Below, in pieces: positions 4,057 to 4,300 of a stretch of 64,000 bases of DNA. The notes beneath the pieces are model-generated. The model was not told where the DNA came from. It ran no database searches and saw only the letters and a list, made by a program, of their open reading frames with translations. Origin of the DNA: a virus (taxonomy: Duplodnaviria > Caudoviricetes). Within the stretch, counting starts at the first letter, position 1. Each line of letters opens with the position of its first letter. The stretch covers positions 1 through 64,000 of IMG/VR virus record IMGVR_UViG_3300048670_001567. The stretch is one strand, 5' to 3'. Made by a program: the position numbers and the translations under genes.

Positions 4057-4085
4057 AAAAAAGCCGCCTCAGGGCGGCTTTTTTT
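4057..4085. terminator. Bidirectional intrinsic terminator downstream of pqqA
   Basis: AAAAAAGCCGCC-tcag-GGCGGCTTTTTTT. Confidence 0.85.
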
Positions 4086-4101
4086 GGTACAGTCACTCAA
4101 A

Positions 4102-4173
4102 TTAACGAGCGGCGATGTACATGGTGACTTCAAAACCGAAACGTGCATCAATTGCTGTTGGCTTGGTCCACAT
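4102..4173 (-). CDS. pqqA: PQQ precursor peptide PqqA (23 aa, [23 protein letters not shown]); absent from the ORF track
   Basis: MWTKP...RFGFEVTMY with the E-x-x-x-Y core; AAGGAG RBS 7 nt upstream; terminator downstream. Confidence 0.92.
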   Translation of the reverse strand: [23 protein letters not shown]

Positions 4174-4300
4174 AGTCATTCTCCTTTGAAATAAATTAAG
4201 TAACTGCATACTGTTACACAATTACTTAGCAACTATGATATGGCAGAATCACCTGAAAAGCATGCATATAATCATTAAATTATACTAGTGCTAAATGCTA

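Follow-up and report, generated by a model that had tools for sequence, protein, structure and literature searches.

What is a gene for the precursor peptide of the cofactor PQQ doing in the genome of a phage? The question is raised by a 23-codon open reading frame (ORF) near the start of the window, by which we mean the whole 64,000-nucleotide stretch of DNA analysed here; it corresponds to the opening 64 kb of a linear IMG/VR virus record of 94,535 bp (the contig). In PQQ synthesis, PqqE and PqqD cross-link the Glu and Tyr of the PqqA peptide, after which PqqF/G, PqqB and PqqC complete the cofactor (PMC10906245). The features of the locus, from the upstream to the downstream neighbour of the ORF, are as follows.

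4301..5188, minus strand (the same as pqqA): RimK-like ATP-grasp gene, the upstream neighbour (PF08443, 7e-47)
4174..4300, minus strand: spacer of 127 nt from the rimK-like stop to pqqA, with a perfect TATAAT at 4279-4284
4181..4186, minus strand: Shine-Dalgarno sequence AAGGAG, 7 nt 5' of the ATG at 4173 and invariant in relatives
4102..4173, minus strand: pqqA copy 1, 23 codons plus stop (stop at 4102-4104, coding bases 4105-4173), with Glu15 and Tyr19 in an E-x-x-x-Y core
4053..4085, minus strand: intrinsic-terminator-like hairpin and U-tract, terminator-like in either direction
4008..4034, minus strand: second hairpin, AT-rich and 12-bp, downstream of the terminator
3696..3917, minus strand: 73-aa ORF without a family match, the downstream neighbour

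Copy 1 is recognised by both PqqA family models over their full length, scoring 36.5 bits against TIGR02107 (curated cut-off of 20 bits) and 36.9 bits against PF08042 (cut-off of 21.1 bits). A PqqA HMM search of the contig translated in six frames, a check proposed in a preliminary description of this locus, recovered the gene with E = 3.3e-9, so the match is not due to chance. That description had read an exact PqqA signature in the 23-aa ORF, and the two model scores and the presence of Glu15 and Tyr19 bear this out. Both residues of the W-x-x-P motif (W2 and P5) are found in the leader, which also carries a variant (T6, I8, A10) that is absent from every bacterial genome hit. No PDB chain matches the PqqA peptide.

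The gene comes with its own ribosome binding site and terminator, as had also been described. Two in-frame ATG codons are available: the AAGGAG motif is 7 nt from the second and just 1 nt from the upstream one, indicating that the product is 23 rather than 25 aa in length. The same motif and spacing are found in bacterial pqqA cassettes. The hairpin lies 20 nt past the pqqA stop and has a 12-bp stem (six G-C pairs with an A-U extension) and a 4-nt loop; its predicted stability is -18.3 kcal/mol (z = -3.5), equalled by none of 200 shuffled sequences. It was overlooked by a consensus terminator scan because the stem absorbs the U-tract, and it resembles the hairpins 3' of bacterial orphan pqqA copies. 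The spacer upstream is a possible promoter or 5' untranslated region: its TATAAT lacks a -35 box, and a consensus scan gave no sigma-70 promoter. The second hairpin (4008..4034) is probably part of the leader of the downstream neighbour (3696-3917). In a search of the cassette and its surroundings, no Rfam family scored as high as its gathering threshold.

A motif scan and an HMM search of the remainder of the contig identified a second gene. Positions with the prefix L001 below follow a numbering in which L001:10297-10368 equals contig 74297-74368.

Contig 74297-74368 (L001:10297-10368), minus strand: pqqA copy 2, outside the window and 70 kb from copy 1

Copy 2 scores 41.3 bits against PF08042 and 39.4 bits against TIGR02107, and it too has an AAGGAG motif, spaced by 7 nt, along with a GC hairpin and U-tract. 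Between the two copies, 13 of 72 nt are different: six codons have synonymous differences, and three residues (positions 6, 8 and 10) are changed. Their composition is also distinct: GC content at third codon positions (GC3) is 0.74 in copy 2 and 0.48 in copy 1, in a contig with a GC content of 0.444. The copy 2 peptide is identical to three bacterial copies, the nearest of which (L142) differs at 3 of 69 nt, and the 3' flank, including an attenuator-like hairpin, is homologous to that of operon-linked bacterial copies. Its leader variant occurs in no other IMG/VR contig. The ORFs 3' of copy 2 were considered as pqqB and pqqC and rejected, having no family match; the first of them also has no viral relatives. 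A further PqqA-like hit, the third, at contig 74856-74888 (12.4 bits, E = 0.036) lacks Glu-x-x-x-Tyr and was discarded as a chance match.

Is the gene accompanied by the remainder of the pathway? HMMs for PqqC (TIGR02111 and PF03070) and PqqD (PF05402) found nothing in the 94.5 kb available (approximately 27% of the estimated genome), nor did tblastn with PqqB, PqqC and PqqE of the bacteria most similar to the pqqA donors. As the TIGR02111 search does find PqqC in those donor-like bacteria, the negative result for the contig is meaningful. Similarly, neither a PQQ_2 dehydrogenase domain nor a viral methanol dehydrogenase was found in the 94.5-kb contig. The absence of pqqBCDE, noted previously for the window, thus extends across the whole contig, and the suggestion that pqq, xoxF or mxa genes be sought in the rest of the genome yielded, for the contig, a second pqqA and neither pqqBCDE nor a PQQ dehydrogenase.

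One gene in the window was tested as a PqqE candidate. The 498-aa radical SAM protein encoded at 41236-42732 is not PqqE-like: it matches the general Radical_SAM domain only, below the cut-off, it has no tblastn match to donor PqqE, and it is missing from a close relative, G030, in which position 42694 is joined straight to 41246. G030 also lacks the 705-aa and 105-aa ORFs that lie between the genes for the small and large subunits of ribonucleotide reductase (RNR) at 21810-24246; the RNR genes are adjacent there, and the two ORFs are probably an inserted mobile element. G030 and a second close relative (G029) span only 20-60 kb of the window and are uninformative on either pqqA locus.

Whether copy 1 is a phage gene depends on the nature of the contig. 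Its estimated completeness of 27% corresponds to a genome near 350 kb. Almost all genes are on the minus strand, and a large number of long ORFs match nothing in PHROG, Pfam or cultured phages; a comparison of three large ORFs with cultured phages gave no useful match, and a megablast search with window positions 2500-9500 found nothing. Matches to phage families include RNR, a DnaB-type helicase, another helicase, an exonuclease and a UvsX-like recombinase, with PHROG virion-protein families matched more weakly. Eleven tRNA genes are located in two clusters at contig 78-81 kb (L001:14068-15677 and L002:102-926).

Alternatively, the sequence could be non-viral: a stretch of host DNA, a chimera produced in assembly, or a bacterial contig wrongly filed among the viruses. 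Many of its genes are cell-like (DnaK, Hsp20, ClpS, RimK, S11 peptidase, RNR, DnaB and RecA-like), and those near pqqA include an S11 peptidase, an Rpb6/omega-like ORF, the RimK-like gene, an exoribonuclease, a cytidylyltransferase, ClpS, Hsp20 and DnaK; furthermore, the 94.5-kb fragment yielded no clear capsid or terminase gene. This explanation is nonetheless extremely improbable. The record sits in a virus collection as an estimated 27% of a very large genome, and its nearly one-stranded layout, big ORFs without family matches, clustered tRNAs and PHROG matches (exonuclease, helicases and virion-protein families) fit a large phage. Against 372 Burkholderiales genomes (401 sampled), its DnaK shows 70-75% identity, a flat distribution with none closer: the contig is therefore not a piece of a sampled Burkholderiales genome, and the same search singled out no host. 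The sample included one unpublished genome (G036), on which no conclusion here depends. Copy 1 has viral DNA on either side, and identical rimK-pqqA-next-gene junctions recur in independent metagenome contigs from several samples, which rules out an assembly chimera. Finally, the contig GC content of 0.444 is far from the 0.60-0.68 observed at the closest bacterial pqqA loci; given this gap, the donors are not necessarily the present host.

Some of the surrounding genes merit description in their own right. Window 2576-3635 contains an S11 D-Ala-D-Ala carboxypeptidase-like gene together with an 82-aa ORF that weakly matches RNA polymerase Rpb6/omega (22 bits, below the cut-off), and the genes for ClpS, Hsp20 and a full-length DnaK form a chaperone cluster at window 6641-9401. 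A sugar-modification block at L001:4856-7276 encodes a dTDP-glucose 4,6-dehydratase, an epimerase-like SDR, a methyltransferase and a weakly CotH-like ORF. The RimK-like gene has homologues with 71-73% identity on two further large contigs of viral origin, 157 kb and 34 kb in length, and we attempted to use it as an anchor for pqqA synteny. This failed: the two contigs share that gene alone, with almost no other neighbouring genes in common with this phage, and pqqA is absent from both. The RimK-like gene thus has the appearance of an auxiliary gene that moves between huge phages.

Conservation of copy 1 could be followed in closer relatives. A metagenome scan for its leader identified five contigs that are 85-96% identical to the window over positions 700-10,000 and, judged by this identity, belong to the same phage population. 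The gene order at 3696..3917 is repeated in four of them (L158, L160, L161 and L162). Because one of the five ends inside pqqA, the gene comparison comprises the window and four complete relatives. Among these, copy 1 has no non-synonymous and two synonymous variable sites in 72 nt, and the spacer 5' of it varies at 4 of 120 columns, while the flanking genes are 85-96% identical; given the flank divergence, the Poisson probability of at most one change in the cassette is 0.0003-0.04. The terminator stems are unchanged in L158-L162, but the loop (window 4069-4072) is different in each of the relatives, L161 having the window loop in reverse complement. Such stem-only conservation is as expected if selection acts on the stem only or if the palindrome flips.

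These patterns suggest, with moderate confidence for so small a target, that copy 1 is maintained by selection in the phage lineage, and such purifying selection within the population speaks for pqqA having a function. Little statistical weight attaches to low variation in a gene of 72 nt, and the equal conservation of the non-coding spacer could also mean a recent sweep or recombination.

Where did the two copies come from? When genomes were scanned for the C-terminal motif, 21 sites were found in metagenome-assembled genomes (MAGs) labelled betaproteobacterial, Burkholderiales or Rhodocyclaceae (a few bear obviously wrong labels). The donor-like MAGs form what seems a related group; they have two to three pqqA copies apiece, one of which is followed by pqqB and pqqC. 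They also encode several PQQ dehydrogenases of the methanol/ethanol family (XoxF/MxaF-type, above the family cut-off) and two to three formaldehyde-activating enzyme (Fae) genes, which together give these bacteria a methylotrophic look. The preliminary description had pointed to a PQQ-using, possibly methylotrophic host; the nearest bacterial copies do lie in PQQ-makers with PQQ dehydrogenases and Fae, and the host is probably a methylotroph outside the Methylophilaceae. From the composition and relatives of the two copies, we infer two captures of whole cassettes from bacteria, copy 1 being old and phage-adapted and copy 2 recent.

What, then, would the phage gain? We consider it likely that both copies are auxiliary genes that feed a consumed precursor to the PqqB-E enzymes of the host. 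This reading starts from the identity of the peptide, its signals, its stand-alone state, its conservation and its bacterial origin; expression, conversion to PQQ and a benefit to the phage would follow as steps of a proposed mechanism. A complete small cassette (ribosome site, 23 codons and terminator hairpin) would have been captured from a bacterial genome. The phage would transcribe it during infection, PqqA would be made on host ribosomes, Glu15 and Tyr19 would be cross-linked by host PqqD/PqqE, and PQQ would be finished by host PqqF/G, PqqB and PqqC. One peptide is spent per PQQ. Bacteria too boost supply through extra orphan copies: Methylophilaceae have 3-12 pqqA copies and a single pqqBCDE (PMC4109929), and in a PQQ over-producer no pqq genes are induced more strongly than the pqqA copies (PMC9851590). 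Since the peptide is consumed one for one and bacteria themselves add orphan copies, phage-supplied precursor would sustain the PQQ enzymes, keeping PQQ-dependent periplasmic dehydrogenases and respiration supplied while host transcription falls. An auxiliary gene feeding the host PQQ pathway had been proposed from the outset, and a true stand-alone PqqA that is flanked by phage DNA and conserved is in agreement with such a function.

A broader survey, in which pqqA proved widespread among viral contigs, bears on whether these genes are kept for a purpose. Scanning viral contigs for GFEVTMY returned at least 120 matches, all of those listed being intact PqqA-sized ORFs, and a second scan for the IAAR ending added seven viral contigs with intact PqqA; thus, 127 of 127 viral copies among the matches listed are intact. 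No PqqB, PqqC or PqqE was found beside pqqA in 141 viral loci examined (1.2 Mb). Five of the seven IAAR contigs are of low GC content (0.35-0.38) and share several genes with this phage.

The cassettes could be passenger DNA: tiny, multi-copy and self-contained, they may have been gained by illegitimate recombination and confer no benefit. Copy 2 has some of the marks of such an origin, as it seems recent (high GC3 relative to the contig GC content of 0.44, and a host-like flank) and its leader variant is shared with no other viral contig; the rimK-sharing contigs also do without pqqA. Against this, copy 1 fits the phage composition in its GC3 and encodes a constant peptide despite 4-15% flank divergence, the viral copies listed are uniformly intact, and pqqA has been retained by the related low-GC phage group as well. 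We therefore regard passenger DNA as an unlikely explanation relative to auxiliary genes that supply precursor.

The leader of copy 1 raises a separate issue. At position 10, 122 of the 127 viral copies among the matches listed and all 21 bacterial copies have M, L, I or V, which makes 143 of these 148 other copies; copy 2 has Leu. The exceptions are copy 1, with Ala, and the related low-GC group, with Lys or Thr. As the leader is the part of PqqA proposed to contact PqqD (PMC10906245), recognition of copy 1 by PqqD could differ. The loss of a hydrophobic residue from this position in the lineage is what might be expected of a decoy or competitor, in which the phage peptide would block PqqD/PqqE unproductively or outcompete host PqqA and so alter the PQQ supply. 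The Glu-x-x-x-Tyr core and the entire C-terminal half are, however, the same as those of bacterial substrates, copy 2 is identical to a bacterial peptide, and lowering the host energy supply brings the phage no obvious gain, leaving this role with very little probability. A related proposal, which we hold to be distinctly unlikely, is that the huge-phage lineage evolved its own leader to alter PqqD engagement, with the host-identical copy 2 serving as a plain substrate; the variant leader could then out-compete host PqqA, escape host control or inhibit. If this were true, the two copies would be functionally different rather than redundant.

The surroundings of copy 2 suggest another use for the precursor. 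A rubrerythrin gene, a DUF3501 gene and a 105-aa ORF (L001:10499-11847) lie just upstream of copy 2, and an AhpF/thioredoxin-reductase-like ORF (L001:7650-8348) lies approximately 2 kb downstream. The latter aligns to the C-terminal two thirds of the enzyme only (positions 106-300 of 300) and may be truncated. In four of the five low-GC viral contigs (L164-L167), pqqA is directly 5' of a homologue of rubrerythrin whose counterpart here is approximately 1 kb upstream of copy 2. The precursor might accordingly support PQQ in an oxidative-stress module, serving to protect against redox damage and not to oxidise methanol or alcohols. The support for this is adjacency, copy 1 has no such neighbours, and PQQ dehydrogenases are abundant in the bacteria whose pqqA matches; redox protection is thus a very improbable role, and a supply of precursor for the PQQ-dependent dehydrogenases of the host is the reading we carry forward.

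The concept of a phage pqqA has been known since 2020, when viral PqqA was proposed as an auxiliary gene in Lake Baikal methylotroph phages (population VP_266; Coutinho et al. 2020, Microbiome 8:163, PMC7678222). We found no other explicit report of viral PqqA in the literature searched. As in this phage, the Lake Baikal gene is a stand-alone pqqA in an uncultured freshwater phage, proposed to aid PQQ-dependent methanol oxidation (PMC7678222). The present phage differs from VP_266 in having two pqqA copies, unequal in age, within a single very large genome, in its IAAR C-terminus, as found in high-GC betaproteobacterial MAGs (a VMNK-type C-terminus dominates the viral contigs among the matches listed), and in that no viral methanol dehydrogenase was found in this contig.

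The cassette closely resembles the orphan pqqA copies of Methylophilaceae and other betaproteobacteria, which also consist of a ribosome site, 23 codons and a hairpin terminator and are located apart from pqqBCDE (PMC4109929), but it is located on a phage genome and has the leader variant noted above. Operon-linked PqqA (PF08042/TIGR02107) is similar in length, in its W-x-x-P leader and in having Glu and Tyr three residues apart; in that case pqqB is next, whereas the phage ORFs that follow here have no family match.

What is new is modest: two copies of differing age, capture of the whole cassette, donors other than the usual Methylophilaceae type of low GC content, and a lineage-specific leader variant. 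These results add a very large freshwater phage to those known to have a PQQ precursor gene and suggest that the gene travels as a whole cassette of approximately 150 nt, with its ribosome site and terminator, that has been captured more than once. As 72-nt genes are missed by gene callers, viral influence on PQQ-dependent methanol and alcohol oxidation is likely to be under-counted.

Auxiliary genes of the psbA type in cyanophages replace a host component that is consumed quickly. The same logic would apply here, with the host machinery doing the rest; in contrast to psbA, which encodes a protein subunit, the phage pqqA encodes a 23-aa RiPP-type precursor that is destroyed in the synthesis of the cofactor.
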